A program made the position numbers and the translations under genes. The notes under the pieces were generated by a model. The model was not told the DNA's origin, did no database searches, and saw only the letters and a list, made by a program, of their open reading frames with translations. A stretch of DNA of 32,000 nt from Rhodobacter capsulatus SB 1003 (GTDB lineage Bacteria > Pseudomonadota > Alphaproteobacteria > Rhodobacterales > Rhodobacteraceae), in NCBI RefSeq assembly GCF_000021865.1, contig NC_014034.1, positions 3,120,001 through 3,152,000 of the forward strand. The letters are read 5' to 3'. Shown piece after piece: positions 1-16,349 of the stretch (position 1 is the first letter of the stretch; every line of letters starts with the position of its first letter).

Positions 1-393
1 TCTGTGCGGCGTCATTAAGGTAAGATCAGGCGATCTATATTTGGTTATCCAGCTTGACCACTCCGCAAGATATACGAATGCGCCCACACTTCACAGCGCA
101 AGACGGGACAGCACGTTGTCGCAAGTGAGGCGGTATTGCCATTTATTGAATGCACGTGACGAACTCCGATGAGGGAGAGCACAACGGCAATGTTGCCGCT
201 TGCAGAAATGAACCGCAACAAGTTGGCTACGACGAAGTGCGTGCCCAAGCTAGGAGATCTAGTTCGAACCGAAAACGAGCGAGTAGAACCGCTAAAGGAC
301 TAAGGCGGCATCAATCCGGAACAACCTCCACTACTGGCATCAGGCAGACAAGTCGCTCTACGGTATGTCATAACATCGAATTTATTTTCGAAA

Positions 394-2241
394 CTAGCGA
401 GATTGCGCATCAAAGAAGGTTACGATCATTTTCATGGCAACGTCACATGCATTGAGCGCTGCGACATCTTGCCAATTATCTGTTTTTCCCATGCCCCAGT
501 CGCATATCCCCTTTATCATCACCCACTCTTTACCATTAAATTGACCAGACGCCGAAACTGCATTGCCCTCCATTTCCCCACCTATTGCGCCAGGAAACTC
601 TGTCCTCAAATTTTCAACAAATTCCTTGCTGTCGACCAACTTCTGCCCAGAGATAATTTGACCGAAGTATATTTTAAAATCAGCCTCAGCAAAATTTGGC
701 CTAACCAGACGCGCGGCCTGAAGTAGGCCAGTTCCCGCAGGAAGCTTTTCGCCTCTATTAATTGTTTTCTCTGTCCCAATGCGGGCTGTCTCATAGTCCT
801 GGATCTCCGTTGAGACAAGTACATCTCCGCATTTTTGATAAGGCTCGCCGTTCTTCTCCGGCAAGAGCCCAAAGCAGATCCCAACGCTTATTAGATGTGT
901 AGCCCCAAGTTCCTTAAGTGCTGCAGGAAGGATCAAACCAGCGCTGTTAACTCCCAGTGATCCTGCACTAGTTCTCAGATGATATACGTGCTGACTTGTT
1001 CCTCGTGTGTACTCCGTTGCGAACCCATTGCCCACTCGCACAGGTCGACTGGAAGTAAATCCACTTTCTTTTAATTTTTGGATTAGAGCATCATCCTCAC
1101 TGTCGGTTGCCGTTGTAACTGCAATTACGTCGTTATTTTGGTGACTCACCTGACTACTCCATGTTGAGTTAAAGATCGGGTCCAATTGAGAAATTCTCGC
1201 AGCGCACTGAATTAATCGCTCGATTCCAAATCTATAGAATTCTTCAGGGTTTCCAAATTTTTTCACATAATCAATATCAAGATACTGAATAAAAACCCTA
1301 TCAATGTGCAATCGAATTGAACTCATGTCGCTGCTGTCGTTAACCTTATTTCGAGCAGAGATCGCCAAGGCATCAAGAAAAATCTGAAGATGATAGGAGA
1401 AATGCCTGTGGGGCAAACTCCCATAATGTTCGATAATATCATCAATTGACCACAAAGAAACCTGCCGCAATGCGCCTAGCGCTTGGAGCGCACGTTTCAA
1501 AAGGGGAAAGTCAAATGCAGGAAAATTTTCAACGACATCCCGGTACGAGAATTGAGGTATGCCTGTGCAAGTGGCAAGCGAACGGCGATCAGCGTAGTTC
1601 TTCATATATAAAGCAGAAATTGCCCGAGTCGCCGCCTCAATTTGCCTGGCGCTCATCTCGCCACCAGCTATGTTGGAGACCAGGAGATCTCTAGTGATTG
1701 CAAGGTCTTCTCTTTTGAAAACTTTGGACTGAATGACATTCAATCCGGATTCGAACACCGCCCTATCTGACGGACTTAGACGAACAAGATCAAAATCGAA
1801 TTTGCTCTGATCGTAAGCTAAAATTAGCCTGGATAGATCGCCAGTCATACTGAATGGGTTTCTGGTACCCAGCTGTAAATCCACTAGCCCTCCTTGGTCT
1901 GAAAAGTAAAATGGGTACCTCTCAGGCACATGGGAATATCTTGCTCGGCGGTCCTCAATAAATTCCGAAAGCGTTGCATTCGAACTGGTTGCATCTATTA
2001 CGCCTCGCTGCATAAGCTTTATTACCTGCGAGAATAATTTTGGTCGAGAATTGCAATACTCAGCCACCTGAGAAATATTAGCCGAGAACCCATGAGCAAG
2101 AGATACCACCAAAATTCTGATGATGGCAATGTCGTCATCCTCAGGTCGATCGCAATTCGCCGCCCGTCCAGCTTCACGGTTTAGAAAATCAAGAAATACC
2201 GGCTTCGAAATAATTGTCACGCAAGCCTCGCGAGAAGCCAA
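394..2241 (-). CDS. Multidomain protein with an N-terminal winged-HTH-like segment, about 300 aa of unassigned helical sequence and a C-terminal PNP/UDP-family (nucleoside phosphorylase/nucleosidase-like) domain; candidate immune effector
   Basis: 615-codon ORF in the AT-rich segment. The last ~220 aa carry three motifs typical of the PNP_UDP_1 fold: HLISVGICFGL, ISGQKLVDSKEF and GGEMEGNAVSAS (E-M-E signature). The track start at 2241 is TTG. An in-frame GTG at 2220 has GAGG 5 nt upstream, so the start is uncertain. Confidence 0.8.
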   Translation of the reverse strand: MASREACVTIISKPVFLDFLNREAGRAANCDRPEDDDIAIIRILVVSLAHGFSANISQVAEYCNSRPKLFSQVIKLMQRGVIDATSSNATLSEFIEDRRARYSHVPERYPFYFSDQGGLVDLQLGTRNPFSMTGDLSRLILAYDQSKFDFDLVRLSPSDRAVFESGLNVIQSKVFKREDLAITRDLLVSNIAGGEMSARQIEAATRAISALYMKNYADRRSLATCTGIPQFSYRDVVENFPAFDFPLLKRALQALGALRQVSLWSIDDIIEHYGSLPHRHFSYHLQIFLDALAISARNKVNDSSDMSSIRLHIDRVFIQYLDIDYVKKFGNPEEFYRFGIERLIQCAARISQLDPIFNSTWSSQVSHQNNDVIAVTTATDSEDDALIQKLKESGFTSSRPVRVGNGFATEYTRGTSQHVYHLRTSAGSLGVNSAGLILPAALKELGATHLISVGICFGLLPEKNGEPYQKCGDVLVSTEIQDYETARIGTEKTINRGEKLPAGTGLLQAARLVRPNFAEADFKIYFGQIISGQKLVDSKEFVENLRTEFPGAIGGEMEGNAVSASGQFNGKEWVMIKGICDWGMGKTDNWQDVAALNACDVAMKMIVTFFDAQSR

Positions 2242-2349
2242 GATCTATATTTTTCCGTATCATCATCAAAATTTCGCAAGCCATCAAAACAAAATTCCGA
2301 CCACTCCGGGCCATTTATCTCCAGCCGCCTCTTCGAATTTGGCCTAAAA

Positions 2350-3156
2350 TCAAGAATATTTACTAATATCAAGCAGACTCACCATAACAAATGCGTCCGT
2401 CTCAGCGGAGTAAAATGCAAACCTATTTGAAAGCAAGTCAGCAACTTGATAGAAGTAAATCTTTTCTTCAGGCATTAATTTCCCATGCTCCAATCTGTGA
2501 CGGCGCCCATTAAGCAGAACCGGCAATACCGCACGCGCGGTGCTCGAAGTTGCCCCGCTTCCATCAACTTCGAACAAATCCAGATCATATTCATCCAGGA
2601 ACTTTCTCAATAGCGCAGTCCGCTTGGAAATTATTGGATTGAAGTGTGTATGAGCGCCAACCGAGAACGAAAAGAATAATTCATTCCATTTTAGCATCGG
2701 CGCCGTGACTACCGGGACTGATCCCTCCGGTATTTCACTTTGATAGCTATAACTGGCCTCTGCGAACAACGCAGAAGCGGAAGCCCAATCAACAATTGCA
2801 TCGACCTTGGATGCGAGACTTCTGGGAATAATTAAAATTCGATAAGGATGCTCCGGCTTTGCCCTCCGGCCCAGATAATTAAAATTTCGCTCACGAATCC
2901 ATGGATGACTCTGCCGGTGCAGATTTCTTAGAAAATATTTACCAACTCCAGTTCGTATAAAGCGCGAATGTCCGCGATTGGATAGGATTTCCTCTGCTAT
3001 TCTAGCCTGCAGCGTTTTAACAATTGTCTCGTAATTCTCATATGGAAGTGCGTTATAGTTTTCGGCAAACGATATAATTTCAGCTCCGGTAAGCGGGATG
3101 CCGCGAGCGTCGATGATTTTTTCTGCCAAGTTGAGATATTGGCTTCCTGCTGACAT
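2350..3156 (-). CDS. HARE-HTH domain protein with an unassigned ~190-aa C-terminal domain
   Basis: The first in-frame ATG is at 3156; the track ORF begins at a TTG at 3186. The N-terminus (YLNLAEKIIDARGIPLTGAEIISFAE ... RIAEEI ... FIRTGVGKYFL) matches the HARE-HTH pattern. It is co-directional with, and upstream of, the PNP-domain gene and has the same AT-rich composition. Confidence 0.7.
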   Translation of the reverse strand: MSAGSQYLNLAEKIIDARGIPLTGAEIISFAENYNALPYENYETIVKTLQARIAEEILSNRGHSRFIRTGVGKYFLRNLHRQSHPWIRERNFNYLGRRAKPEHPYRILIIPRSLASKVDAIVDWASASALFAEASYSYQSEIPEGSVPVVTAPMLKWNELFFSFSVGAHTHFNPIISKRTALLRKFLDEYDLDLFEVDGSGATSSTARAVLPVLLNGRRHRLEHGKLMPEEKIYFYQVADLLSNRFAFYSAETDAFVMVSLLDISKYS

Positions 3157-3526
3157 AGTCGCTGATATCTCCTCGCAGGCACTCAAGCGTTTTGATGCGT
3201 CACCGAAGCTGACGCAACTCAGTCATCATCTTATTACATCATTAAGCTCCGGCAACAGCTTTGAAGGACCAATAGCTGCGTCAAGTGTCAACGCCGGGCA
3301 CTGGCTGCATCTGAGGGAGTGCTTACGTTGACTGACAGTTGCAGGCAGACAGGCGCGTCTCTTTCGACGTTTGCGCAACGGCAACGCTGCTTCATCACCC
3401 CAAACCTCATCCGCTCAACCTGGAGGGTAGCTTTAGGCATCTCCACAAACCGCCCCAGGAGCGGGCTTGAACCTACTCCCAGGGCGTCTGGATTGCGATT
3501 TCGGGGCTGCCTCCCCTCCCTCAGCC

Positions 3527-3787
3527 TCACCCCCTCCTGTCAGCCCCTCCCTGGCCCTTAGCGATGCGCTTCAGAAGCTCATGGTTCTCCAGGGCCAGGG
3601 CCATGTTCCCGGCAAAGACGATGCTGCAGAACAGCCCTCCAAGGGCCATCATCAGCCCCGTCTCTCGGGCCTTGGGCGTGTCCCCTGCGATGAAGAAGCC
3701 AAGCCCCACGATCAGGGCCACGGCCAGGAACAAGCCGCACCAGGCGAAGAAGACGATGCGGTAAAGGGTGATGAGTTTGCGAAGCAT
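3527..3787 (-). CDS. Small membrane protein (two predicted TM helices), probably co-transcribed downstream of the resolvase
   Basis: 86 aa with ATG at 3787 and AGGAGA 5 nt upstream. Two hydrophobic stretches: IVFFAWCGLFLAVALIVGLGFFI and GLMMALGGLFCSIVFAGNMALAL. It starts 37 nt after the resolvase stop. Confidence 0.6.
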   Translation of the reverse strand: MLRKLITLYRIVFFAWCGLFLAVALIVGLGFFIAGDTPKARETGLMMALGGLFCSIVFAGNMALALENHELLKRIAKGQGGADRRG

Positions 3788-3823
3788 GATGCTCTCCTGT
3801 GTCGTGATGTTTGGGGGGGATGC

Positions 3824-4375
3824 TCAGGCCGCAGCCGAGATGACGCGGTAGACCGAACGCTCAGAGATGCCGAGCTTGCGGGCGATCTCCCGCTTCGGCG
3901 TCCCTGCCGCCAGCAAGGCCAGAGCTTCGGCCTGCTTGAACTGAGCCGTGGGCTTGCGGCCCTTGTACTTCCCATCGGCCTTGGCCTTGGCGATGCCTTC
4001 CCGTTGCCGCTCCAGCATCATCTCCCGCTCGAACTGAGCCACGGCCCCAAGCACATTCAGCATCAGCTTGCCGGTGGCATTGGCCGTATCCAGCCCCAGG
4101 TCGAGCACCCTCAGCCCCACCTTCTTGCGCTCCAGGGCCTCCACGATCTCGCCCAGGTGACGCACGGAGCGGGCCAGACGGTCGAGCTTGGTCACCACCA
4201 GAGTGTCGCCTTCCCGAACGAACTCCAGCGCCGCAGAGAGGGCGTCTCGCTGCCCCACCGAACTCACCTGCTCCTCAAACAGCTTCTCGCACCCGAGGGC
4301 CTGCAGGGCCTTCCTCTGGGCCACAAAGCCCGCGATCTGGTCCAGGGTCGAGGTGCGGGCATAACCGATCAGCAT
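3824..4375 (-). CDS. Serine recombinase (resolvase/invertase family)
   Basis: The N-terminus MLIGYARTSTLDQ carries the catalytic-Ser motif, followed by VVTKLDRLARS and a C-terminal HTH (TPKREIARKLGISERSVYRVI). ATG at 4375 is preceded by AAGGAGG at 5 nt spacing. The track ORF extending to 4672 adds a 99-aa low-complexity extension that I reject. Confidence 0.92.
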   Translation of the reverse strand: MLIGYARTSTLDQIAGFVAQRKALQALGCEKLFEEQVSSVGQRDALSAALEFVREGDTLVVTKLDRLARSVRHLGEIVEALERKKVGLRVLDLGLDTANATGKLMLNVLGAVAQFEREMMLERQREGIAKAKADGKYKGRKPTAQFKQAEALALLAAGTPKREIARKLGISERSVYRVISAAA

Positions 4376-4785: not shown

Positions 4786-4980
4786 CTTGGGGAACACTTA
4801 CGTTTCCAAGTAATTAGCTGCTCTTACGTTTCCAAGTAATGCCCTGGTCGTCCTGAGAGAACCTTAGCTTCCAAGGTATACCAAGTATCTGATGATAGGG
4901 GTATATTACCTTAGATACCTACCCTGGATCATCCAAGGCTACCCCCAAGTTCTCCCAAGAATCGACCTTGGAGGGCCAAG
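4786..4980. repeat. Cluster of ten CCAAG/CTTGG pentamers in non-coding DNA (candidate res site or iterons)
   Basis: CTTGG at 4786 and 4967. CCAAG at 4806, 4832, 4871, 4881, 4933, 4945, 4955 and 4976. A pentamer is expected about 0.4 times in 200 bp on both strands. Confidence 0.8.
4797..4840. repeat. Exact 18-bp direct repeat CTTACGTTTCCAAGTAAT x2 (4797-4814 and 4823-4840)
   Basis: Read directly from the sequence. The copies are in 26-bp register and each has TTAC-N8-GTAA dyad ends. Confidence 0.95.
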
Positions 4981-4999: not shown

Positions 5000-6358
5000 T
5001 TATTTGCATCTGACCTCAGGTAAGCAACCAAAGCGGTTCCCGTAAGCTTCCACCAGACAGGTGAGAGCCACGTCCCGATGCTGTTTGGCGACGATCAAGC
5101 TGTCAAAGACGGGCAAGGCAGCGACACCGTGATCATGCCCAAGACGGGTCAGGCACTCCATGAAGCACTCGGATTCCTCATATTGCAGCCGAGCCCAATC
5201 CATCGAGCCCTTCTTTAGCTTGTTCAGGATCGGATGCTTGGCGATCAGGGCGTCAAGAACCTTTCCGAGCTTGTAGACGGTGCTTATTTTCCGGCCTGTG
5301 GGCTTCATGTAGTCCTCGCTTAGCTTCTTCGGGAAGCGGGTCAGGCGCGATCCTTTCCCCGTCATCGCCGCAAAGAGCCCCTTCACCACCTCCCGCTCGA
5401 CACCAGGCAGGAAATAGGGATCGTCGTCGGTGTCCAATTCCAGATCGTGCAGGGCGTAGAGGATGAAGAGATGACTTGACCCAACGTCAAGCTCGACTGT
5501 GGGCTCACCCCGGCAGGTGATCAGGGCGCGGTCTTCTTTCGGCCTCTGCTGCCAATCATCCTCGGAACAGCAATAGAGCCTTCCGCCCATGTTGAAGTCG
5601 AAGTTGTGGAAGTTGCCTCTGCTGAACAGCCGATAGACCCGAGGTGTTTCCGCCAGGTCGAAGCCTCCTTGGCCCAGGATTGCGTTGATCTCCTTGACCC
5701 TTTGGACCTCAGCCTCATACTTTGGCCCGGCAAAGCGCATATTGGCCGAGGTAACGCCTGTGCCATGCCGATTGGCAACTTCAGAGCGCACCGTGACCGG
5801 AGACAGGCGTCCCGTTTCCTTCTGGAAGTGATCCTTGAGCGTGTCCGGGGTGATGCCGAAGCCCTCGGCCAAGCTCAGCAACTCCGCTGTTGCCCGAAAG
5901 CGTCTGGCCCTGCCAAAGCCCGTCCCCGTGTCTTCCCCCTCCCAAGTCTCCCTGACCCGAAAGAAGCGGGTGACCTCCATCAGCCCCATCTCTGCCCAGA
6001 ACTGCAGCAATTGCTCGAAGCATCGCACCGAGACAAAGGTTTGCCCCAGGGCCTCCTTGTCGTAGGAGCGATAGAAGAATCCTTCGGCCTCCTGAAACCG
6101 GGCATGGTGGATCAAATCGGCGGCGAAAGCAGACACGGCCCCTGTAAAGCTCCTCTGAGCCTCTGCCTGCCTTTTGCGATTCCTGGGCTTCACCTTGGCT
6201 TCATGGTCAAGCGTGATGGCCGTCAGATGCGCCACCAGAGCCCTTGCCGCATCGGTCTTCGGGACAAAGACGAATTCCGCCATGCGGGCCGCTTCAAGGT
6301 GATCCCGGGAATGCCCCAGCGCCGTGACGCGGAGAGTGTCAGTGTTCATGTCGTTCAT
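5000..6358 (-). CDS. Hypothetical 452-aa island protein; possible replication/polymerase-like function (speculative)
   Basis: Long ORF with balanced composition, immediately downstream of the island-1 integrase on the same strand. The segments ELDVGSSHLFILYAL, REVVKGLFAAMTGKG and LPVFDSLIV occur in the order of polymerase motifs A/B/C. This is eye-level matching only. Confidence 0.75.
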   Translation of the reverse strand: MNDMNTDTLRVTALGHSRDHLEAARMAEFVFVPKTDAARALVAHLTAITLDHEAKVKPRNRKRQAEAQRSFTGAVSAFAADLIHHARFQEAEGFFYRSYDKEALGQTFVSVRCFEQLLQFWAEMGLMEVTRFFRVRETWEGEDTGTGFGRARRFRATAELLSLAEGFGITPDTLKDHFQKETGRLSPVTVRSEVANRHGTGVTSANMRFAGPKYEAEVQRVKEINAILGQGGFDLAETPRVYRLFSRGNFHNFDFNMGGRLYCCSEDDWQQRPKEDRALITCRGEPTVELDVGSSHLFILYALHDLELDTDDDPYFLPGVEREVVKGLFAAMTGKGSRLTRFPKKLSEDYMKPTGRKISTVYKLGKVLDALIAKHPILNKLKKGSMDWARLQYEESECFMECLTRLGHDHGVAALPVFDSLIVAKQHRDVALTCLVEAYGNRFGCLPEVRCK

Positions 6359-6439: not shown

Positions 6440-7795
6440 TCAGGCAGCAGAGGCTTGCTCAGCGGGGCCTTCTCCCGGCAACGGCAGCACCGTCTTCAGC
6501 ATGTAGCGCTGCATCAACTCCAGGCTGTGGCCCTTGCCGTAAGTCTCCCCGACACCCTTCCCGGCCCATCCACCGATCCGGTCGATCAGATCGGGCGGGG
6601 CTTCCACGTTGCGAAGGCGATCCCGCATCGTGTGCCGGAAGCTGTGGAGCGTCTGGCCTGTTCGCGCCAACTTGTTTTCCTTGAGCCACTTGTTCAGGGC
6701 AGCGGAAGCCGCCCCGGAATGAAACTCATCTTTCGGAACATCCTTGGCGATGCTTGGGAAGAGGAACTTTCCTTCGGTAGTCATGGCGCGCTGGGCAGCC
6801 CAGAGAGCGGCACCAACGAGGGGAACCGACCTCGCAGAGCTTCCCGTCTTCAGGTTGCGAACATCGGTCACGCGAAGCCTGACATGGGGGACCGGATCGT
6901 GCAGCCGAACGTCCTCTTTCATGATCTGCTGCAATTCTGCCAAGCGGGTCATGGTGTCTGAGAGCATCGCAATCAGCCACCGCCGTTCGTCGTCCTTTTC
7001 GCGGCAAGCAGCCTGAATCGCCATCAACTCTTCGATTGTGAAGGTGTCTCGGGGTTTGCGTGGCCCCTCGTCACGGTTGGGAATCGCCAGCTTCTCGAAG
7101 GGATTGACCTTGCTCATCTCGAATTCAAGCAGACCTGTCTGGATCACAGGGCGCACCTGAGCCAAGTAGCGTCTCACCGTTTCAGCGCTGAGCCCCCTTT
7201 TGATCAACTTCTGCACGAATTCATTGGCATGGTCGCGGCTGAGATGGTCGAGGGGAATGTCTCCGGTGATCTCAAGAAGATGGCCCCAAGCCCGCTCGAA
7301 CTGGTCCACGGCCACTTTTGCCTTTGGCCCCTTGCCCAGATCGAAATGCTTCTCCCTGGCATCGCTGAGGAGCTTCGGCACAGATGGGCTGTAGAGGTAA
7401 TCCAAAGAAAGCTGCTCGGTCGGAGACAAGAGTGCAATAGCCTCTTCTTCCCTGCCCGGGCCAACAAGGTTGTCGATGTAGGCCTCAATGGCGGGGTGAC
7501 CACGATGTCTGAGGGCATCGCCTGGCTTCAGGTGGCGGGCTTCAAGCATTGCCAAGGCAGCATGAGGGTCGGCCCCGGCCTTGCTCCCCTCCCGATGCGC
7601 CTTCCAGAGGGCATCCAGGCGACGGGTTTGGGCATCAGCCAGGCGACACGCTTCGGCCTTGTCGGCGGTCTTCAGGCTGAACATCAACTGCTCACGTGCC
7701 CGCTTGCCCGGCACCTTGTAGAGCGATCTCACATCCTCAGGGATGCGGCGGCGGTAATAGTAGGTATTTCCTTTGAGTAGGAGGTGCATGCACAT
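6440..7795 (-). CDS. int: Tyrosine recombinase/integrase of island 1
   Basis: The C-terminal catalytic region HSFRHTMRDRL ... GGWAGKGVGETYGKG contains the H-x-x-R-H and Tyr signatures. The N-terminus is LLKGNTYYYRRRIPEDV. The track start at 7864 is TTG; ATG candidates are at 7795 and 7789, so the start is uncertain. Confidence 0.9.
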   Translation of the reverse strand: MCMHLLLKGNTYYYRRRIPEDVRSLYKVPGKRAREQLMFSLKTADKAEACRLADAQTRRLDALWKAHREGSKAGADPHAALAMLEARHLKPGDALRHRGHPAIEAYIDNLVGPGREEEAIALLSPTEQLSLDYLYSPSVPKLLSDAREKHFDLGKGPKAKVAVDQFERAWGHLLEITGDIPLDHLSRDHANEFVQKLIKRGLSAETVRRYLAQVRPVIQTGLLEFEMSKVNPFEKLAIPNRDEGPRKPRDTFTIEELMAIQAACREKDDERRWLIAMLSDTMTRLAELQQIMKEDVRLHDPVPHVRLRVTDVRNLKTGSSARSVPLVGAALWAAQRAMTTEGKFLFPSIAKDVPKDEFHSGAASAALNKWLKENKLARTGQTLHSFRHTMRDRLRNVEAPPDLIDRIGGWAGKGVGETYGKGHSLELMQRYMLKTVLPLPGEGPAEQASAA

Positions 7796-7914
7796 GACCC
7801 TTAAGGCACCTGCGGCGAACATCACTATCATGGTTTGTGTAACCTCGTGTGTTACCTCAGGCAACTCACGAGAGCCACTTAAGTCTCTGATATTAAAGGA
7901 TAATACAGAGATTT

Positions 7915-7932
7915 GGTGGCGGACGGGATGGG
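7915..7932. repeat. att direct repeat (copy of the tRNA-Ser 3' end)
   Basis: GGTGGCGGACGGGATGGG is identical to 22046-22063. That is the last 16 nt of the tRNA, including CCA, plus 2 flanking nt. Confidence 0.9.
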
Positions 7933-7991
7933 CTCAATACCATGTCCGCAAAGCATTGATTTTTATATGTAATATAAAAGCCGCGCAATGC

Positions 7992-8095
7992 TTCCCTAGC
8001 AAATTCCCTAGCGCGCCGAAATCCGAACATTCGAGGGCGGCGTGTTGCCGCATCCGCCACACTATCCGCTAGGGACGAGACGGCAATCCCTATCG
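7992..8095. promoter_or_regulatory. Cluster of (A/T)TCCCTA(G/T)C motifs at the distal end of island 2 (candidate integrase/excisionase arm-type sites)
   Basis: TTCCCTAGC at 7992-8000 and 8004-8012. An inverted copy (GCTAGGGA) at 8068-8075. ATCCCTATC at 8086-8094. The same motif recurs at the integrase-proximal end (21872-21924). Confidence 0.45.
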
Positions 8096-8260
8096 TGCCT
8101 TCCGGCAGATCGAAGCACCCGCCCTATCTGCCCGATCCTGATCGCGGCCCTTGCGGCCTTCCCCTGCCCGATCACCGAGCCCGCCGCGGATCCGGGCGCG
8201 ACAAGCGCCCCGCCCTCGGGCATCCTGCGCCGGACGCAGCGACGGCAGGGAGGCGGGGGC

Positions 8261-8893
8261 ATGTGCGGGCGGATTGTCGATCCGAACCTTCGGAACACCG
8301 AGGTGGACATGTCGCAGATCAGGATCGACCCGTTCGGGGGCCGGTTCAACGTCAAGCCGACCGAGACGGTGGTGATCCTGGCGAAGACGCCTCTGATCGC
8401 GATGGAGGCGCGCTGGGGCCTTATCCCGTCATGGTTCGATGGCGGCAGCAGCCCGAAGGCGTGGAAAGCCGCGACGTTCAACGCCCGCATCGAGGATGCG
8501 CGCGAAAAGCCCGCCTTTCGGCAGGTGTGGCGGCACGGCCGCTGCCTTGTGCCGGTAGGCGGTTTTTACGAGTGGAGCGGTCCCAAGGGCGCTCGCCAAC
8601 CGCATTTCTTCCGGCCCGGGGGCAACGAGGCGAACCTGTATCTGGCCGGGCTGGCGAGCCGGTGGCGCGATCTGCTGACCTGCACGATCATGACGCGGGC
8701 GGCGACGGGGGCGATGGGCGGGCTGCATGACCGGATGCCGGTCGTCCTGAACGCGGACGAGCGCGAGGCCTGGCTGGGCAGCACCGACGATGTGTCGGCC
8801 CTCGGGGCCGGGGCGATGCTGGCGCATCATCCGGTTGCGCCGTTCGGGCTGCAAGACGATGGCCCGGAGTTGATCGAGGCGCTTGAGGGGTGA
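8261..8893 (+). CDS. SOS-response-associated peptidase (SRAP/YedK family)
   Basis: Starts MCGR (catalytic Cys2) and contains WGLIPSW, GGFYEW and HDRMPVVL. ATG at 8261 is preceded by GGGAGG. The track ORF from 8042 adds a low-complexity extension. Confidence 0.88.
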   Translation: MCGRIVDPNLRNTEVDMSQIRIDPFGGRFNVKPTETVVILAKTPLIAMEARWGLIPSWFDGGSSPKAWKAATFNARIEDAREKPAFRQVWRHGRCLVPVGGFYEWSGPKGARQPHFFRPGGNEANLYLAGLASRWRDLLTCTIMTRAATGAMGGLHDRMPVVLNADEREAWLGSTDDVSALGAGAMLAHHPVAPFGLQDDGPELIEALEG

Positions 8894-9117
8894 TCAAGCG
8901 GGCGGTGCAGATCTTGCCAATCCGCGCCGTTTGCCCCACCGGCGGGCTCGGATCCTCCTTCAAAGCAGCGTTTTTTTCGGTCAGCGACACCGGAAACGAC
9001 AAATTAACAATGCCGAGATCATCATTGGCTGCGACGCTTTTACTGTTGGATTATTTCCAACTTCGAGCGACATTGAGAAGATGATAGTGATCCGCCGAAG
9101 CAACGGCAACGTGGCGC

Positions 9118-10374
9118 ATGGAACCCGAAGAAATGATCAATCCGGCGGTCCTGAAGTGGGCGCGCGAGACCGCGGGGCTATCCATTGAGGAGGCCGCGAG
9201 CAAGATTGGTTTGACGTCTGGCCCTCGCGGTTCTGCCGCAGAAAAACTTGCGGCTATCGAAGTGGGAGCTCGCGTGCCTTCTGAAGCGCAGCTTCTTAAG
9301 ATGGCCGTCGCCTATCATCGCCCCCTTGTTGCACTATACATGGCAGAGCCGCCTCGGCCAGCAGAGCGCGTTGAAGACTTTAGAACGATTGGCGCACCAG
9401 TTGCCACCCGCGAGGCAGTTCATCTTGACGCGCTGGTTCGGGATGTGCGGATGCGGCAAAGTATCCTGCGCGAAATGATGGAGGATGATGAGGATTCCGA
9501 AGCTATCGAATTCGTGGGAACCTTGACGGTTGCAACCCCGATCACCCAAGCAGCGAGCCGGATCAAGGCGGCTCTCGGGATAGAGGACGACCGCAGTCTT
9601 CGTCGGGGAATGCACGAGCCACAAGATCTCTTTAACGAGTTGCGCCGCAGGACCGAAGCGCTTCGCATTTTCGTCATTCTTCTGGGCGACCTCGGCAGCC
9701 ATCACACGGCAATATCTCCGAATGTGTTTCGAGGTTTCGCCGTTGCTGACAACCTTGCTCCGATGATAGTCATCAACGACCAAGATGCGAAGGCCGCTTG
9801 GTCTTTCACCCTCGTTCACGAATTGACGCACATTTTCGTCGGCAATAGCGGCGTAAGCGGTCTTCCGGTCACTACAGAGCCACGCACACCGAACGCCCGC
9901 ATCGAGCGCTTTTGCAATGACGTTGCCGGGGAGGTATTGCTTCCTTCCCAGGCGTTGGCGCATGTGCCGAAATTGGCTAGCGTTGAGGCAACAATGCGGG
10001 AGGCCGAAGCGCTCTGCCGGGACTGGCATGTGAGCAAGGCCATGGCGGCCTATCGGCTTTGGCGCGAGCGAAAAACAGATAGCGACACCTATGGTGAAGT
10101 TGTCCGCATCTTTGGTGCGCAATGGCAAGGCCAGCGGGAGCGCGAAAAGGAAAAGAGCCGGGATATTGATGGCGGGCCGAATTATTATATCGTGCGGCGG
10201 CATCGGTTGGGGGATGCCTTGTTGCGATTTGTGGGGCGCGGGCTTCGAGCCGATGCAGTAACTCACACCACCGCAGCAAAAGTCTTCGGAGTTCGTCCCG
10301 GAGCCGTTGAGCCCTTACTTGCGAGCATTGCGGGGCTCGGCAATGGCGCTCCAAGGAGGAAGGCGGCGCAGTGA
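9118..10374 (+). CDS. XRE-type HTH fused to an ImmA/IrrE-family zinc metallopeptidase
   Basis: N-terminal HTH (LKWARETAGLSIEEAASKIGL) and the HEXXH motif HELTHIF. It is translationally coupled to the next gene by a GTGA overlap. Confidence 0.85.
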   Translation: MEPEEMINPAVLKWARETAGLSIEEAASKIGLTSGPRGSAAEKLAAIEVGARVPSEAQLLKMAVAYHRPLVALYMAEPPRPAERVEDFRTIGAPVATREAVHLDALVRDVRMRQSILREMMEDDEDSEAIEFVGTLTVATPITQAASRIKAALGIEDDRSLRRGMHEPQDLFNELRRRTEALRIFVILLGDLGSHHTAISPNVFRGFAVADNLAPMIVINDQDAKAAWSFTLVHELTHIFVGNSGVSGLPVTTEPRTPNARIERFCNDVAGEVLLPSQALAHVPKLASVEATMREAEALCRDWHVSKAMAAYRLWRERKTDSDTYGEVVRIFGAQWQGQREREKEKSRDIDGGPNYYIVRRHRLGDALLRFVGRGLRADAVTHTTAAKVFGVRPGAVEPLLASIAGLGNGAPRRKAAQ

Positions 10375-10856
10375 TTTACCTCCTTGATGCCAATACATTG
10401 ATCAGGGCTAACGCCGACTATTATCCGATTGAGCGAATTCCGCAGTTTTGGGATTGGCTGATAGGATGCGGCCAAACAGGTTTGGTGAAAATACCAAACG
10501 AGATCGCAGACGAGGTGACCGCAGGTCGGGATGACGTTGCGGATTGGCTGAAGGAGGCAGAGGCTAAAAATGCACTTCGGCTCAGCGAGAGAGTAGATAT
10601 CACAGCCCTCCGGCATGTCGTTGCCACAGGTTACGCGCCAGACCTCGACTCGACGGAGATGCAGAAGATCGGCAAAGACCCCTTCCTCATTGCTTATGCA
10701 CTCGGAAAGCCCGACCGCAGGGTAGTTACCAAAGAACAGTCAAAGCCCTCCAAAATCCGTTCCAATCGGAAGGTGCCCGATGTGTGCGATGCTTGCGGAG
10801 TAACTTGGTTGAACGATTTCGGCTTCTATCGAGAGGCGGATTTCAGGATCTGCTGA
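10371..10856 (+). CDS. PIN-like DUF4411-family protein (putative toxin/nuclease partner of the ImmA-XRE protein)
   Basis: The N-terminus MIYLLDANTLIRANADYYPIERIPQFWDWL matches the DUF4411 pattern. GTG start at 10371 has AAGGAGGAAGG 7 nt upstream and overlaps the preceding stop by 4 nt. Confidence 0.75.
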   Translation: MIYLLDANTLIRANADYYPIERIPQFWDWLIGCGQTGLVKIPNEIADEVTAGRDDVADWLKEAEAKNALRLSERVDITALRHVVATGYAPDLDSTEMQKIGKDPFLIAYALGKPDRRVVTKEQSKPSKIRSNRKVPDVCDACGVTWLNDFGFYREADFRIC

Positions 10857-10900
10857 CCTTTTGTCAAGTATTCGTTTAGGCTTATGGTCAACTGAATTCC

Positions 10901-11476
10901 CTAATCAGACTTTGGAAGCATTTCGCCGTCCTTATCTAACCCTTGGGAAATGATCGACAGGGCCTTGTCGCGCATCTGGATTGCGGCGCCCCGGCTGATC
11001 GTGCCCCGGGCCTTGATCGCCGCATCGAAGGGCTTTTTCGTCACCTTGCAGCGCAGCCAAAGGGCCAGGATCTTGGCGCTGCCTTCGTGGTCCTTGAGAT
11101 AAATGCGGGGCCAATCGAGCGCGGCTTCATGGCGGCTGATCTGTTCGGGCGACGGCATGACGCGCAGGCGCCGGGGATCGGGGTCTTCGTCACCGGCCAC
11201 CTCGGGCAGGCCCCAGCCCTCGGCCAGATGCTCGTCAAGGCTCGCGATGAAGGGCAGCGCCACCGTCTTGATGCCGCCCGGCCCGGTCCTGCCTGCCGAC
11301 CATTGCGCCCACCGCAGCGCCTCAAGCATCGCCTCGCCCACCGCCTTCGGGGTCCATTGCTCGGCCGGGGCATAGCGCGCCGCCAGCACGGCGTTTTCCC
11401 GTTCGCGGAACCGCTCGGAATACTCGGCCAGCAGGGAGGCCATCTGGGGATTGCGCACGGTTACTCGGGCGTTCAT
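10901..11476 (-). CDS. Hypothetical protein with a possible C-terminal HTH-like segment
   Basis: 191 aa from ATG 11476, with AGGAGG 9 nt upstream. Composition is balanced. The C-terminal segment ISRGAAIQMRDKALSIISQGL resembles an HTH recognition region. Confidence 0.65.
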   Translation of the reverse strand: MNARVTVRNPQMASLLAEYSERFRERENAVLAARYAPAEQWTPKAVGEAMLEALRWAQWSAGRTGPGGIKTVALPFIASLDEHLAEGWGLPEVAGDEDPDPRRLRVMPSPEQISRHEAALDWPRIYLKDHEGSAKILALWLRCKVTKKPFDAAIKARGTISRGAAIQMRDKALSIISQGLDKDGEMLPKSD

Positions 11477-11688
11477 AGGCGGCTGCCTCCTGCTTGTGGG
11501 GATGCGACAAGATAGCACTGGCCCACGGGCAGGGAAAGCCCGCAGCGCCCACGCGCTGGCGCGTGGCGCGCATCTTGGGGCTTCCGCTACCTCACAGCCG
11601 CCAGCGCAAAGTGCGCATCAGCGGGCCGGAAATCGGCCCCTCCGTCGATCCGCCCGCTGCGAGAGTGCTTGCCAGCGCTCTGACACGC

Positions 11689-12756
11689 TCAGAGGTAGCT
11701 TTTGACGGTTGCCTCGATCTGCTCCGCGAATTTGTAGATGTCGGACAAATCTTCGATCTGAACCTTCGTTTCCGACTTGTCGGGCTGCGGCGCAAAGATG
11801 CCCACCGACTTGCTGCTCTTGGCGTTGAAATAGAGGCGGCAGATCGGCTTGCGGTTGTTGTCGTCCACGAAGATGCTGCAATAGGACAGCGCGTCACGCA
11901 TCGTGATCCGGTTCACATTCGCAACTCTCGAAGCGATGGCCCGAACGATCATGAAGGCCTGCATTTCGTCATCAGTCGTCACGGGCTCACTGCCCACAGG
12001 GGCATCGGCTGGCTTCTTGTCGGGGCTGTCGATCTGCGGGGCGTCTTTTCCGAAGGTGATGTTCAGCCGCTCCTGAATGCGGTTGCGCACGATGTCATCC
12101 AGTGCGGCCTGAATGGCCGGGCGCAGCAATTCAATCGCCCCTTTGGTGAGGCTGCCCTCGTAGATGTGCTTGCCGAAGAAGCGCACGAAATCATCGTCCG
12201 GGTTCGCAAGCTGGCGCGAAATCTCGGCCGAGGCGGCTTTGACGTATTTAAGGTTCGACGCCGCCTCAAGGATTGCCTCGATGTCGAAGCCTTCCTTCTG
12301 GAACCGGGCGAGTTCGGCCACCTGCCTGTCATCGTAGTTCTGCAGATCGAAGACGAAGAAGGGCTTTTTGTCCATCTTGTTCGTCTCGTCAATGTCCGAG
12401 AAGAACCAGACCTCGCGGCCATTGGTCAGGATCGCAAGCCGCGCCTCAACCGTCGAGAAATAGCGGAACAACTGACTGTATTGCGCCGACCCCAAGGCCA
12501 TTGAGATGGGTTTCGCTTCCACGAGGATGGCGGGCTTGCCCGCGATCTTGAGGGCAAAGTCGATCTTTTCGCCCTTCTTGATGCCGACATCGGCAATGAA
12601 CTCGGGCACCACCTCTTCGAGATTGAAGGGGTCAAACCCCAGCGCCTTGATCAGCGGCAGGATCACCGAAGTCTTCGTCGCTTCCTCGGTCAGCGCGTGC
12701 TGGCTGGCGTGCCGCGACCGAGCCCCGAGGTCATCCACGCGCTGTTTGAAATCCAT
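11689..12756 (-). CDS. HsdR_N-type PD-(D/E)xK nuclease domain protein with an unassigned C-terminal half
   Basis: EATKTSVILPLIKALGFD ... KIDFAL ... ILVEAK ... LAILTNGREVWFF gives the D...E-x-K core typical of type I restriction enzyme HsdR N-terminal-like domains. ATG at 12756 has GGAGGA 8 nt upstream. Confidence 0.8.
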   Translation of the reverse strand: MDFKQRVDDLGARSRHASQHALTEEATKTSVILPLIKALGFDPFNLEEVVPEFIADVGIKKGEKIDFALKIAGKPAILVEAKPISMALGSAQYSQLFRYFSTVEARLAILTNGREVWFFSDIDETNKMDKKPFFVFDLQNYDDRQVAELARFQKEGFDIEAILEAASNLKYVKAASAEISRQLANPDDDFVRFFGKHIYEGSLTKGAIELLRPAIQAALDDIVRNRIQERLNITFGKDAPQIDSPDKKPADAPVGSEPVTTDDEMQAFMIVRAIASRVANVNRITMRDALSYCSIFVDDNNRKPICRLYFNAKSSKSVGIFAPQPDKSETKVQIEDLSDIYKFAEQIEATVKSYL

Positions 12757-12877
12757 TTCGCCGTTCCTCCATAAACCCAATGGTTGCACGGTGGGACACT
12801 TCTTGACGATTCTCAAGGTCTTGAATGTGACCTGCCGCCAGACCACAGCGCCAGTTTGACAGATCAATGACGCGCCT

Positions 12878-13327
12878 TCAGTCTGGAAGCTGGGCAAGAT
12901 CTGCGGCGATGGCCCCTTGCGCACGGCGCAGCGCATCTTCGATGGCCCGCCGCTCACGCATGTCGCGGGTGACGCGGGCAGGCAAGCCGCCGATCTGATC
13001 CGCGATCACGCCGCAGAGGAAATCGGTCGCGGTTTCCGCCTCGGCATAGGGGATCACGTCACGGCGGGCGACGGCAAGAGCAAGTTCGCTGGCCTCGGCC
13101 CGGGCGTCCCGGGCGCGGGCCATCGCCGCCGAGGCGCTGGCGGTGCGGTTATTGTCGCGCAGGTGGGCGAGATAGGATTGAACCGCCGAAATCATCGGCA
13201 GCTTGTCGCCGTCGAGCGGCGGAAGCGTGCCTGCCGCGATCAGGTTTTCGATCTCCCCCGGTTCGGCGCAGGTCAGGCGGCGCAGGCCGCTCAAGGTGAT
13301 CGTTGCAGTCGGGCGGGCAGTCGTCAT
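12878..13327 (-). CDS. Nu1/COG4220-like small-terminase-like DNA-binding protein (paralogue 2)
   Basis: 149 aa. The pattern ASAAMARARDARAEASELALAVARRDVIPYAEAE...GGLPARV resembles phage Nu1-type TerS. The start overlaps an upstream open frame (ATGA). Confidence 0.5.
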   Translation of the reverse strand: MTTARPTATITLSGLRRLTCAEPGEIENLIAAGTLPPLDGDKLPMISAVQSYLAHLRDNNRTASASAAMARARDARAEASELALAVARRDVIPYAEAETATDFLCGVIADQIGGLPARVTRDMRERRAIEDALRRAQGAIAADLAQLPD

Positions 13328-13498
13328 GCTTTCACCTCTTTCGGCCCAAGGCCGCGCGCGGCCCGGGCGTTTCGCTTGGCAAGGGCCGCGGCCAGCTGGT
13401 CCAACTCCACAGCCAGCCGGGCAATCCGGCGGGCCTCGTCAGGCTGATCAGGGGCCTGTGCGTGGGAGAGAGCGACGAGGCGGGCCAGCGCTTGTCGA

Positions 13499-13813
13499 TC
13501 ACGTCAACGAGATCTGCGCGGCGCGGGCTGCGTCACGGCGCAGGCGGCGAAGATACAATGGCGTGCCGCGAAGGCCCGGCGGTGGCCCCCGGCGGGTCGG
13601 GCGCAGGGCCGCGTCAATTGCAGCATCACCTCCAGCGATCCGGCCCTTGTAATAGGTAATGGCCTCGTTGACGGCATCCGAGAAGACAATGCGCCCATCG
13701 GCGCCCGCGGCCTGACGGATCACAGAGGCGGGCGCGCGCAACTCGCGCGCCGCCACCTCGAAAGGCAACTCCTGCGCCATGAGGCGGGCGACGGCGCGGG
13801 GAAGATCAGTCAT
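13499..13813 (-). CDS. Hypothetical protein (C-terminal third looks out of frame or low-complexity)
   Basis: ATG at 13813 overlaps the stop of the upstream gene (ATGACTGA). The first ~65 aa look sensible and the tail is Arg/Pro/Gly-rich. Confidence 0.45.
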   Translation of the reverse strand: MTDLPRAVARLMAQELPFEVAARELRAPASVIRQAAGADGRIVFSDAVNEAITYYKGRIAGGDAAIDAALRPTRRGPPPGLRGTPLYLRRLRRDAARAAQISLT

Positions 13814-14306
13814 CGCCGCCCCCAAGGTCGCGAAGGTCGCCCGTCGAGAGTGCCGCCAAGGCTCGGACCTTGGCCGCTTCAATGGCACGGCAAGCTGCGC
13901 TGATTTCCGTGGACAACACCTTGCGGGTCGCGGGCGTGAGCCCCTTGTCAACGGGGGCTTTGCGCAGGCGCGAAACCGCGGTGCGCGCGATGCGCTCGAT
14001 GACGGCCTCAGCCTCGGCCAGGTCGATAAGTTCGGCCCGGCGGCGCTCGGTCGAAGCGGCGATCAGAGCCGCCTTCGCCTCATGAGACCGGCTGGCCGCG
14101 GTGCTGGCGGGGGTCTTTCTGGCCTCGGCTTTCAGAAATCTGACGTATCCCTGCACCGCCGAAGTCGCGGTCGTGTGGCCCCGGGCAACCTTGGCGACGT
14201 ATCCCATCTTCGCCAGTTGTCGAAGCCGCTCAGGCCCGATGCCCAGGAGGCGTGCCGCCGCCTCCATCGGCAGGGCGTCCGGGGGCAGATCGGCGGGCGT
14301 GGTCAT
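13806..14306 (-). CDS. Nu1/COG4220-like small-terminase-like DNA-binding protein (paralogue 1)
   Basis: 166 aa from ATG 14306. The HTH (MEAAARLLGIGPERLRQLAKMGYV) is followed by FLKAEARKTPAS...AKAALIAASTERRRAELIDLAEAEAV. It starts 2 nt after the upstream stop. Confidence 0.5.
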   Translation of the reverse strand: MTTPADLPPDALPMEAAARLLGIGPERLRQLAKMGYVAKVARGHTTATSAVQGYVRFLKAEARKTPASTAASRSHEAKAALIAASTERRRAELIDLAEAEAVIERIARTAVSRLRKAPVDKGLTPATRKVLSTEISAACRAIEAAKVRALAALSTGDLRDLGGGDD

Positions 14307-14308
14307 AG

Positions 14309-15019
14309 TCAGCCCCGCGTCAGATCGGCCATCGCCCCACCGGCCAGCCCAGCGGCGCCGATGGACGCATTCGCATCCTTGACGGCTTTCGCCCACATGC
14401 TGTCGATACGCTCGCCCTTCGACATGCCGCCGCCGTTGTCAAACGAGGGGCCGAACGAACCCGCCTCGCGCTGACGCTGCTCGAAAGTTGGATATTTCCG
14501 CGCTTCCGCTTTGGGCGCAGCCAGCAGCGCGGAAACCGCCTGCGCGAGCGTGAGGTCAGTTTCAAGCGCAAGAGCCGAGGCGGTCGCGAAACGGTCGGCG
14601 GCTTCGGGATGGCCGAGGATCGAAGCGACCCGGCGCCGTTCGTTCACCGCCGCCTGGGTGCCGAATGTGCCGATGGCCTCGGGGATCGCCAGCGCCTCGG
14701 CGGTGGCGGAAGCGTCAGGCGGCAGGGTGGCCAGAACCGCCCGTGCGCCCGTGGCATCGAGAGGTGTCGAGATGGCCAAACGTGCCGCTTGCATGGCCTT
14801 GCCCGCGTCGGCACCGGTCTTGATCACGCCCGCAATGCGCTGGCGCTCGGCTTGCGCCTCGGCGGCGATGGCGGCAGCGGCCTTGGCCTGCTCGGCGGCC
14901 TTGGCCTCTGCGGTCAGTTCGGCCTCGATCCGGGCAGCTTCCGCTTCGCGCTCGGCAGGCGAAAGCCCGGTTGCGAACGCACGGCGGGCGGCAACGGATT
15001 TGATTTCAGCGGGTGTCAT
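14309..15019 (-). CDS. Ala-rich protein with an internal duplication; phage scaffold / prohead-protease C-terminal-like (tentative)
   Basis: 236 aa. It has two copies of an ER(Q/R)R(I/V)A.I...A..LA(I/L).T.L....A...L...P module. ATG 15019 overlaps the upstream stop (ATGA). Confidence 0.6.
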   Translation of the reverse strand: MTPAEIKSVAARRAFATGLSPAEREAEAARIEAELTAEAKAAEQAKAAAAIAAEAQAERQRIAGVIKTGADAGKAMQAARLAISTPLDATGARAVLATLPPDASATAEALAIPEAIGTFGTQAAVNERRRVASILGHPEAADRFATASALALETDLTLAQAVSALLAAPKAEARKYPTFEQRQREAGSFGPSFDNGGGMSKGERIDSMWAKAVKDANASIGAAGLAGGAMADLTRG

Positions 15020-15261
15020 CGTTTACTCTCCTTGGATTTTCGCGCGGCGAAGACGGCTTCGATTGCCTCGGTCCGCGCGCTGGCGATGGCGCGGAAGGCC
15101 TTCGCCCTTTCGACCGAGCGAAACTTTGGCCACGCGGCCACGAACCGGCCAAGCAATTCGGAATTGGAAATTGTCAGCCACACCGTCGCCGAGAGTTTCA
15201 GCGCCTCGCGCGGATGGCCGAACCCGACGAACTGCCGAGCTGCTTCTCGCAGATCAGGCAT
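15016..15261 (-). CDS. Hypothetical protein
   Basis: 81 aa with ATG at 15261, balanced composition and coupling to the downstream gene. Confidence 0.55.
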   Translation of the reverse strand: MPDLREAARQFVGFGHPREALKLSATVWLTISNSELLGRFVAAWPKFRSVERAKAFRAIASARTEAIEAVFAARKSKESKR

Positions 15262-15418
15262 CTATATTTTCCACTTCCATTCCGGCGGGTCGGATTTGCT
15301 CGGCGGCGCGGCTCATGAGGAACGCCAGGCCGGGACGCGGCTGCGCTTGCCGATCTTGAAGTTCAGCGCGCGCTGCCCGAGGGTCTTTTACGGCGGAGAT
15401 GTGTGTCTTTTCGGTCAC
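15254..15418 (-). CDS. Possible small ORF (54 codons, GTG start)
   Basis: My own translation is VTEKTHISAVKDPRAARAELQDRQAQPRPGLAFLMSRAAEQIRPAGMEVENIDA. Its TGA overlaps the next ATG, and AAGGA lies upstream of the GTG. It falls below the ORF-track length cutoff. Confidence 0.3.
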   Translation of the reverse strand: MTEKTHISAVKDPRAARAELQDRQAQPRPGLAFLMSRAAEQIRPAGMEVENIDA

Positions 15419-16348: not shown

Positions 16349-16349
16349 T

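Follow-up and report, generated by a model that had tools for sequence, protein, structure and literature searches.

Near the left end of a 32,000-nucleotide (nt) stretch of Rhodobacter capsulatus SB 1003 DNA (NC_014034.1, positions 3,120,001 to 3,152,000; hereafter the window) lie two adjacent genes on the minus strand, which we call gene A and gene B. The SB 1003 provenance of the stretch is confirmed by sequence comparison, the 278-residue product of gene A being 100% identical to ADE86657.1. Our comparison of this locus with its relatives leans toward the view that the pair is an unnamed, self-contained, mobile two-gene defence module, in which the gene A protein would restrain or trigger the gene B protein, a predicted effector with a PNP nucleosidase domain. 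Effectors of this kind have been described before, but not this control module or this pairing. An earlier note on this DNA had pointed to two co-directional minus-strand genes here and had proposed that they form a candidate undescribed abortive-infection system. The two open reading frames (ORFs) and the peptides that it quoted are present in the sequence, and most of its interpretation is upheld at the level of the gene families. Tens of homologues, grouped in 42 homologous clusters for gene A and 33 for gene B and mostly at 45-55% identity, show that neither gene is spurious.

Gene B (394..2220, minus strand), the predicted effector gene, encodes 608 amino acids when read from a GTG at 2220-2218, the same length as its orthologues P0001 and P0079; its ORF reaches to a TTG at 2241 (394..2241, minus strand, 615 amino acids). 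An AlphaFold2 (AF2) model of the protein has a mean predicted local distance difference test (pLDDT) score of 84.9. The C-terminal part contains a PNP_UDP_1 domain resembling that of methylthioadenosine/S-adenosylhomocysteine nucleosidases (MTANs), encoded at 448..1125 on the minus strand (residues 373-598 in the 615-residue numbering) and matched by Pfam above its cut-off (E 4e-9). Foldseek superposes the C-terminal 245 residues on MTANs and futalosine hydrolase (E 1.8e-12, target template modelling (TM) score 0.79). Residues E382, E556-M557-E558 and D581 (in the motif ICDWG) are invariant in 22 gene B homologues and align with the EME and SD motifs of MTANs. The PNP/UDP fold with an E-M-E signature that the earlier note had read at this C-terminus is thus well founded, and the active site is nucleosidase-like. 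D581 shares its I-x-D-x-G motif with the aspartate whose mutation inactivates Cap17 (D472A) and DtcC (D353A), where the motifs, ISDFGD and VVDMGD respectively, were deduced from mutagenesis primers and sequences.

The gene B protein is nearer to the sponge protein DDAN, a verified ATP nucleosidase (66 bits over residues 368-604 by BLASTP; 41 bits by phmmer), than to the best solved MTAN (28 bits). Table S4 of a published catalogue of PNP effectors holds a Cap17-clade cluster whose 'Defensive context' entry is empty and whose members come from R. capsulatus DE442, Y262 and R121, Bacteroidetes bacterium GWF2_33_16, Devosia, Rhizobium and Mesorhizobium (Rousset et al. 2023). We found full-length gene B homologues in the taxa of this cluster, GWF2_33_16 being the organism of one of our loci (L010), and from these matching taxa the cluster appears to be the gene B family, which would place gene B within the Cap17 (ATP-nucleosidase) clade. 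That clade is enriched near defence systems (18% versus 2.6% expected), and its PNP domains are toxic when expressed alone (Rousset et al. 2023). The word undescribed in the earlier proposal therefore suits the system, since the pairing is unnamed, and not the effector, since the effector family apparently already stands in a published table.

Ahead of the PNP domain, the gene B protein has a mostly helical N-terminal domain of about 365 residues (1147..2220, minus strand), recognized from AF2 secondary structure, the motif FLDFLNRE and alignment, in which R15, E16, Y95, Y102 and Y209 are invariant. We presume this domain to be a partner-binding or regulatory module. It corresponds to helical sequence that had previously been left unassigned, and it has no detectable relatives outside the gene B family. 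A profile search of the Protein Data Bank (PDB) with this domain gave nothing significant, a MarR protein appearing at E 0.35, and a fold search for residues 1-365, run with the whole model as query, produced PDB and BFVD lists filled by PNP matches and nothing credible for this region. When a profile of the domain was searched against 5.8 billion proteins for fusions to other effectors, a search limited by its word index, the full-length matches carried PF01048 except for two without Pfam annotation, and the rest were short fragments. The winged helix-turn-helix (wHTH)-like segment suspected earlier in gene B is unproven: it amounts to a helix-strand-helix-helix-strand arrangement in the AF2 model (residues 34-86) and the non-significant MarR match.

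The identity of gene A derives from its family and its fold, because direct scans of Pfam, NCBIfam, PHROGs and PADLOC gave no match for the window protein. Sequence and profile searches of the PDB returned only chance matches such as KCTD5. Pfam does, however, match HARE-HTH at the corresponding N-terminal position in 32 of 36 representatives of the gene A family (4.4e-14 at best, with several exceeding the 25.9-bit cut-off), suggesting by homology, and not by a direct match, that the window protein carries this domain too. The HARE-HTH N-terminus claimed in the earlier note thus stands at the level of the family and not for the window protein taken alone. In counter-invader systems, HARE-HTH domains have been proposed to tell modified DNA from unmodified DNA (Aravind & Iyer 2012).

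The C-terminal part of the gene A protein, about 190 residues of which had been given no assignment, now has a predicted fold. In an AF2 model of repaired gene A (pLDDT 79), nearly all of the top 50 Foldseek PDB matches of the C-terminal domain are Nudix proteins, the best being 3e57 (E 1.3e-4, probability 1.0, target TM score 0.68). Pfam NUDIX is matched below its threshold in 2 of the 36 gene A relatives, P0128 (16.1 bits against a cut-off of 21.1) and P0117; the P0128 match is in register, runs from the Nudix-box helix onward and keeps the canonical RREISEEL helix. Gene A proteins of the Rhodobacter clade read TARAVLPVL at this helix and conserve an acidic cluster, RKFLDE(F/Y)DLDLFExDG, instead. 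Judging from the model and these alignments, the C-terminal ~200 residues are probably a divergent Nudix-fold domain and, in the Rhodobacter clade, not a canonical hydrolase. Because of this domain, sensing of a nucleotide by gene A is at least as likely as the sensing of DNA envisaged earlier. The domain is rare, with 42 representative clusters among 1.84 billion proteins, and its full-length matches (~280-330 residues) have ~95 N-terminal residues ahead of it. In phage and plasmid collections we found no phage match and one HARE-HTH-only fragment on a Polymorphobacter plasmid.

As read in the window, gene A occupies 2350..3156 on the minus strand and encodes 268 amino acids from an ATG at 3156 (278 from a TTG, at 2350..3186, minus strand), comprising the HARE-HTH region (~residues 5-80) and most of the divergent Nudix-fold domain. 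Its aligned homologues all extend ~45 residues beyond this stop, with a near-invariant P..RRLE.N..W. An alignment of strain DNA reveals a single extra base at 2354 (C on the coding strand, G on the plus strand) that shifts the frame: three other R. capsulatus assemblies (CP198954, CP198940 and AYPR01000034) match the window over 211 shared bases save for this base, which they lack. Frame translation and homologue alignments place the conserved tail out of frame at 2217..2353 on the minus strand (..DFRPNSKRRLEINGPEW..), and the residues so lost include invariant R277 and W285 and near-invariant P272, R276, L278, E279 and N281. Removing one base from the run at 2354 yields a 312-residue protein identical at 311 of 312 positions to P0076 (WP_131618323.1, on 69 contigs), the intact gene A product of those three assemblies. 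In intact strains the gene A TGA (2219-2217) overlaps the gene B GTG start (2220-2218), a 4-nt overlap. The intergenic gap of about 110-130 nt reported earlier is therefore not a spacer; the 108-nt stretch between the two ORFs is the gene A tail, put out of frame by the extra base. Unless that base is an error in the reference assembly, gene A of SB 1003 is truncated and its translational coupling to gene B is lost.

Because the frameshift removes the conserved last ~45 residues and uncouples gene A from gene B, the SB 1003 cassette may be defective. We put the chances about evenly that the window copy is a decaying, non-functional cassette, whatever the intact system does. In favor of decay are the disagreement with three assemblies at 2354, the invariant residues in the lost tail and the existence of other decayed copies, in locus L086 and in R. 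capsulatus SP36. Yet the extra base could be an assembly error, the truncated gene A retains its HARE-HTH region and most of its second domain, and gene B is undamaged, with 100% identity to its counterpart in strains whose gene A is intact.

In the metagenomic locus L086 (2389-4203), gene A is intact and the gene B homologue is split by a stop after ~69 residues; this copy is apparently decayed. R. capsulatus SP36 (CP198955; L020, 9950-10456) has a lone 169-residue ORF with 50% identity to the last ~150 residues of the gene B PNP domain. This ORF is accompanied by neither the N-terminal part nor gene A, and the scan found no full-length gene B in SP36. It appears to be what is left of a second, related cassette.

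Wherever an alphaproteobacterial locus has a full-length gene B, gene A lies immediately upstream on the same strand and either abuts or overlaps it, and this arrangement persists down to 22-35% identity. The two families, whose co-occurrence the earlier note had proposed to test, are thus tightly associated across genomes. The R. capsulatus pair forms the AT-rich cargo of an ~8-kb island integrated at a tRNA-Ser gene. Integrase islands with an Arm-DNA-bind_3 (P4-type) integrase carry it in Phaeobacter, in Roseovarius and at locus L001; the Phaeobacter and Roseovarius islands also hold HTH_17/AlpA, and the Roseovarius island holds Prim-Pol. In Rhodovulum the pair is cargo of a Tn7-like element (rve-TniB-TniQ), and in Mesorhizobium and at locus L002 it stands alone as a two-gene islet among housekeeping genes. 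The G+C (GC) content of the window pair is 45.3% (43-47% in 500-nt windows over 501-3000) against 65.2% at 8000-32000, in agreement with the low GC content noticed earlier, and in 25 of 30 loci the pair is lower in GC than its flanks by 5 points or more.

The locus from Rhodovulum kholense (L120, QAYC01000026) has two tandem Tn7-like elements, each with HTH_35, rve, TniB, TniQ and AAA_28. The first of these carries gene A and gene B, and the second has other cargo.

Relatives of both genes occur in other combinations. Downstream of distant gene A relatives (315-350 residues, whose HARE-HTH match exceeds the Pfam cut-off) lie overlapping genes that encode HEAT-repeat proteins. These have a common N-terminus of ~370 residues and differ at the C-terminus, where they carry a CHAT protease, a PNP domain or a short segment that is rich in Gly and terminates in a hydrophobic helix. 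Homology between this HEAT module and the gene B N-terminus was considered and rejected, as hhalign shows no profile similarity between them. Conversely, a different partner, of ~580 residues, is encoded upstream of the gene B homologue and overlaps it at the seven Bacteroidota loci where that homologue is full-length (L010-L013, L017, L018 and L023). In all four loci scanned (L012, L017, L018 and L023), this partner has a FAD/NAD Rossmann N-terminus, a region like the C-terminus of FAD-dependent proteins, and DUF7768. By analogy, swapping of effectors behind a conserved adaptor and of partners before a conserved effector is typical of immune and conflict systems.

To place the pair among known systems, we compared it with models and published descriptions. 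PADLOC has no model that covers the pair, and gene A matches nothing in it; literature searches turned up no account of a PNP effector partnered by a HARE-HTH/Nudix protein, and no paper among those searched names the system. Pfam and PADLOC detect no kinase, receiver, CD-NTase, SAVED/TPALS, STAND, Argonaute or reverse-transcriptase module on either protein, consistent with the earlier observation that the pair lacks the Detocs kinase and receiver and the cyclase of the cyclic oligonucleotide-based antiphage signaling system (CBASS) and fits no named system. The Detocs assignment was rejected because neither protein nor the island has HisKA, HATPase or Response_reg and no Detocs model of PADLOC was matched. 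The cassette resembles Detocs in that the effector's C-terminal Cap17-clade PNP domain stands behind an N-terminal regulatory domain, in its form as a small operon on mobile DNA, and in the expected output, ATP/dATP cleavage and abortive infection, which for gene B is our inference. It differs in having two genes and not three (DtcA/DtcB/DtcC), in the absence of a histidine kinase, a buffer protein and a receiver domain, and in its input, which would come via the HARE-HTH/Nudix-like protein and a helical domain without known relatives.

Type III CBASS with Cap17 was likewise rejected, there being no CD-NTase and no PF18178/TPALS or SAVED match; its Cap17 belongs to the same PNP clade and has its catalytic aspartate in the same I-x-D-x-G motif as gene B. 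The PADLOC CBASS model 'Effector PN-superfamily' (PDLC00759) covers ~80 residues of the gene B PNP domain (E 2e-6). PDC-M60 of PADLOC, which needs components A, B and C, was also rejected: the last ~100 residues of PDC-M60C, its PNP part, match gene B (E 1.3e-6), and nothing more does. In the PNP-fused antiviral STAND (Avs)/NLR-like proteins, short prokaryotic Argonautes (pAgo) and defense-associated reverse transcriptase DRT8 (Rousset et al. 2023, Fig. 2B), PNP is, as it would be here, an interchangeable suicide effector on a sensor module. Many of the PNP-only matches in our genome scan are large multi-domain fusions. Gene B, in contrast to those three kinds of system, has no STAND NTPase, Argonaute or reverse transcriptase, and sensing is apparently left to a separate small protein.

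MtnN, the methylthioadenosine/S-adenosylhomocysteine (MTA/SAH) nucleosidase, is the nearest solved fold (target TM score ~0.8) and has the EME motif and catalytic aspartate in common with gene B. This candidate was rejected, as gene B scores 34.3 bits against a cut-off of 169 (NF004079) and 20.8 against 73.8 (TIGR01704); identity is 17-22%, gene B has 608 residues with an extra 365-residue domain against ~230 residues, its context is mobile, and its published clade is different. For gene A, a parallel in architecture is NrtR, whose N-terminal Nudix-like domain without catalytic residues is a ligand (ADP-ribose) sensor joined to a C-terminal wHTH and which is linked to genes of NAD metabolism. 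Gene A also would join a DNA-binding domain of winged-helix type to a Nudix-fold domain without canonical catalytic residues. In contrast to NrtR, its domain order is reversed, its HTH is of the HARE type, it has no sequence similarity to NrtR, and its partner is a toxic-type effector on mobile elements. Restriction endonucleases with a fused HARE-HTH, linked to Dnd and bacteriophage exclusion (BREX) systems, have this domain at the N-terminus as gene A does, but in gene A it is fused to a Nudix-like domain and not to a nuclease, the predicted killing activity being in a separate nucleosidase protein.

A defence module of this kind could work as follows. The gene A protein would be made in fixed proportion to the gene B protein through the 4-nt overlapping stop and start. 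It would either keep gene B off or sense the trigger, the signal passing via the ~365-residue N-terminal domain of gene B. The trigger may be invader DNA read by the HARE-HTH domain, a nucleotide-type ligand in the Nudix-like pocket, or both. Once activated, the PNP domain would cleave the N-glycosidic bond of ATP/dATP to give adenine and ribose-5'-triphosphate, and the loss of ATP/dATP would starve the infected cell, resulting in abortive infection. The sequences themselves show the identity of the domains, the conservation of the catalytic residues, the strict pairing of the genes, their mobility and the exchange of effectors among relatives; the defence function, ATP as the substrate, the direction of signaling and a physical complex between the two proteins are what we infer.

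The results that favor a defence module are the PNP domain with its invariant catalytic residues, the greater similarity to DDAN than to solved MTANs, the taxon match to the Cap17-clade cluster, the pairing beyond this genome, the mobile setting, the swapping of effectors and partners among relatives, the HARE-HTH and Nudix-like domains of the gene A family, the fact that no match to a named system was found and, in the neighboring island, an ImmA/IrrE-DUF4411 pair and a protein with an HSDR_N domain. A number of results weigh against it. Pfam HARE-HTH (PF05066) matches neither the window gene A protein nor intact P0076 (E<=1). The Nudix assignment comes from a moderate Foldseek score (E 1e-4, query TM score 0.42) and two sub-threshold Pfam matches, and the canonical Nudix box (GX5EX7REUXEEXGU) is missing from window gene A, which reads ..RKFLDEYDLDLFEVDGSGATSSTARAVLPVL.. 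and has no REUXEE. DtcC and the available part of Cap17 give no significant pairwise match to gene B, so that its ATP specificity is extrapolated from clade membership, and the Table S4 gene identifiers are equated with gene B orthologues by taxon and not by sequence. Several loci (L002 and L119) have housekeeping neighbors only. Finally, SB 1003 survives although its gene B is intact and its gene A truncated, which argues against gene A as an indispensable brake, or else means that the system is silent in this strain.

In a rival reading, gene A would be an operon-specific, ligand-responsive repressor, comparable to NrtR, BrxR or CapW, that holds the operon off until a signal appears, and gene B would be self-sufficient, sensing infection by its N-terminal domain. 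That SB 1003 tolerates a truncated gene A speaks for this reading. Gene A is indeed an HTH protein with a ligand-type domain, encoded first in the operon; the window protein lacks the REUXEE glutamates, as befits the Nudix-like domains that act as ligand sensors in NrtR; and gene B of Bacteroidota has an entirely different upstream partner. That Bacteroidota partner, however, occupies the same overlapping position without having an HTH, and the 4-nt overlap and strict one-to-one pairing suggest stoichiometric partners. The gene A family, moreover, has two kinds of downstream partner only, unlike BrxR or CapW, which occur with many systems, and a promoter and terminator scan of window positions 1-3900 gave nothing exceeding shuffled sequences, with no operator-like repeats or promoter identified upstream of gene A. 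We regard a purely regulatory gene A as possible but unlikely. Equally tentative, and to our minds a rather unlikely reading, is that gene A is a new kind of immune sensor, which would recognize a nucleotide in its degenerate Nudix pocket, possibly together with DNA modification through its HARE-HTH domain, and would license interchangeable effectors (PNP, CHAT or a membrane tail) via helical adaptors. Candidate ligands for such a sensor are a phage-specific modified deoxynucleoside triphosphate, ADP-ribose or the effector product ribose-5'-triphosphate, and in Bacteroidota the same effector would then be served by a different metabolite sensor, the FAD/DUF7768 partner.

Two overlapping genes with an HTH protein first, always found as mobile-element cargo or as an islet, also recall an addiction module, in which gene B would be a constitutively toxic nucleosidase and gene A its antitoxin and autorepressor, mainly stabilizing the host mobile elements. 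The toxicity of Cap17-clade PNP domains expressed alone fits this picture, but the intact gene B of SB 1003 beside a gene A without its invariant residues does not; the 365-residue, regulatory-looking domain of gene B would be superfluous for a plain toxin, and immune sensors typically exchange effectors (CHAT, hydrophobic tail, PNP) behind a conserved adaptor. We consider addiction as the main role improbable, and because many toxin-antitoxin systems also defend, it overlaps with a defence module. A role in metabolism, with gene B an MTA/SAH-type or other nucleoside-salvage nucleosidase and gene A its metabolite-responsive regulator, seems very improbable to us. RefSeq does name gene B '5'-methylthioadenosine/S-adenosylhomocysteine nucleosidase family protein', its best solved-structure matches are MTANs, and HTH-plus-Nudix regulators of nucleotide metabolism are known (NrtR). 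But gene B falls far below every NCBIfam equivalog cut-off and has 608 residues with an extra domain, its distribution is patchy and rare, on mobile elements and with aberrant GC content, and the taxon-matched Table S4 cluster lies outside the housekeeping clades (DeoD, XapA, Udp and MtnN). Its counterparts among the relatives, furthermore, replace PNP by a CHAT protease or a hydrophobic tail.

Bacteria and eukaryotes share an immune strategy, recently recognized, that employs ATP-nucleosidase (PNP) effectors. To our knowledge, few of the systems that control PNP effectors are understood, namely CBASS, Detocs, Avs and pAgo. A two-gene defence module, if the reading is true, would add a compact control logic in which HARE-HTH and a degenerate Nudix-fold domain are combined with a private helical adaptor, and would supply a function for a cluster left unlabeled in the published Cap17-clade catalogue. 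Because relatives of gene A pair with CHAT-protease and membrane-type effectors, understanding gene A could explain a small family of systems; were gene A a new immune sensor, that family of two-gene systems would be a previously unrecognized one. As SB 1003 is the R. capsulatus reference strain and has a frameshifted gene A, the intact allele of other strains is better suited to tests of the system.

The R. capsulatus island that carries the pair has the order integrase (DUF6538 type), a protein of 449-452 residues, resolvase, an 86-residue ORF, gene A and gene B. In the window, all of these are on the minus strand. Pfam identifies a tyrosine integrase (DUF6538 and Phage_integrase) at 6440..7864, the same gene being present in the corresponding loci of other R. 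capsulatus strains (L116-L118), and a serine recombinase (Resolvase and HTH_7, E 1.4e-38) at 3824..4375, which is called as a 183-residue gene in L116-L118. The integrase island and adjoining serine recombinase described in the earlier note are thus corroborated, both by these matches and by attachment (att) repeats. The backbone protein at 5000..6358 has 452 residues in the window and is matched by neither Pfam nor PADLOC; the islands of L014 and L006 encode homologues. The small hydrophobic ORF of 86 residues lies between the resolvase gene and gene A at 3527..3787 and is called and conserved in L116-L118; with 64% GC, it is part of the island backbone and not of the AT-rich pair. Inspected by eye, it apparently has two transmembrane helices, and it is found in all R. 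capsulatus copies of the island and absent from the loci of other hosts.

At the integrase end, the island is bounded by an 18-nt att repeat, GGTGGCGGACGGGATGGG (7915-7932, plus strand), with an identical copy at 22046-22063 that overlaps the 3' end of the tRNA-Ser gene (22048-22137, minus strand). In other strains the distal att copy, with 2 mismatches, follows the gene B stop at a distance of ~490 nt, just beyond the left edge of the window. An Rfam scan of the entire window gave the tRNA as its sole match. A tandem 26-nt direct repeat (CTTACGTTTCCAAGTAAT...) occupies 4797-4848, in an AT-richer gap between the gene for the 452-residue protein and the resolvase gene; it could be a binding site for a recombinase or a replication protein.

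A second island of ~14 kb (7933-22045) lies in tandem between the island studied here and the tRNA-Ser gene and is bounded by the same 18-nt repeat. It contains a P4-type integrase gene (20559-21851), an SRAP gene (8042-8893), a gene for the protein with an HSDR_N domain (11689-12957) and several ORFs without Pfam match. At 9118-10856, an overlapping pair encodes a 418-residue HTH and ImmA/IrrE (Peptidase_M78) protein, followed by a 161-residue DUF4411 protein. The ImmA/IrrE protein matches the PADLOC models RmrA (E 2.5e-10) and capP (E 6.6e-9), and the pair looks like a regulator-plus-toxin or defence-associated one. Strain CP198940 (L117) is without the 14-kb island, and there the island with gene A and gene B directly abuts a mechanosensitive-channel gene and the tRNA-Ser gene.

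Past the distal att copy, in the region corresponding to that beyond the left end of the window, L116-L118 hold an HTH/Peptidase_S24 repressor gene and Mu-like phage structural genes (13811-20939), the latter comprising Phage_tail_S, a Mu-like protease, Gp36 and a tail terminator. Because these structural genes lie just past the distal att copy in the other R. capsulatus strains, the cassette adjoins a prophage-like region. In the chromosomal flank, at 25773-26999, a 408-residue protein fuses GGACT (gamma-glutamyl cyclotransferase-like) to a canonical NUDIX domain; it is unrelated to the Nudix-like domain of gene A.

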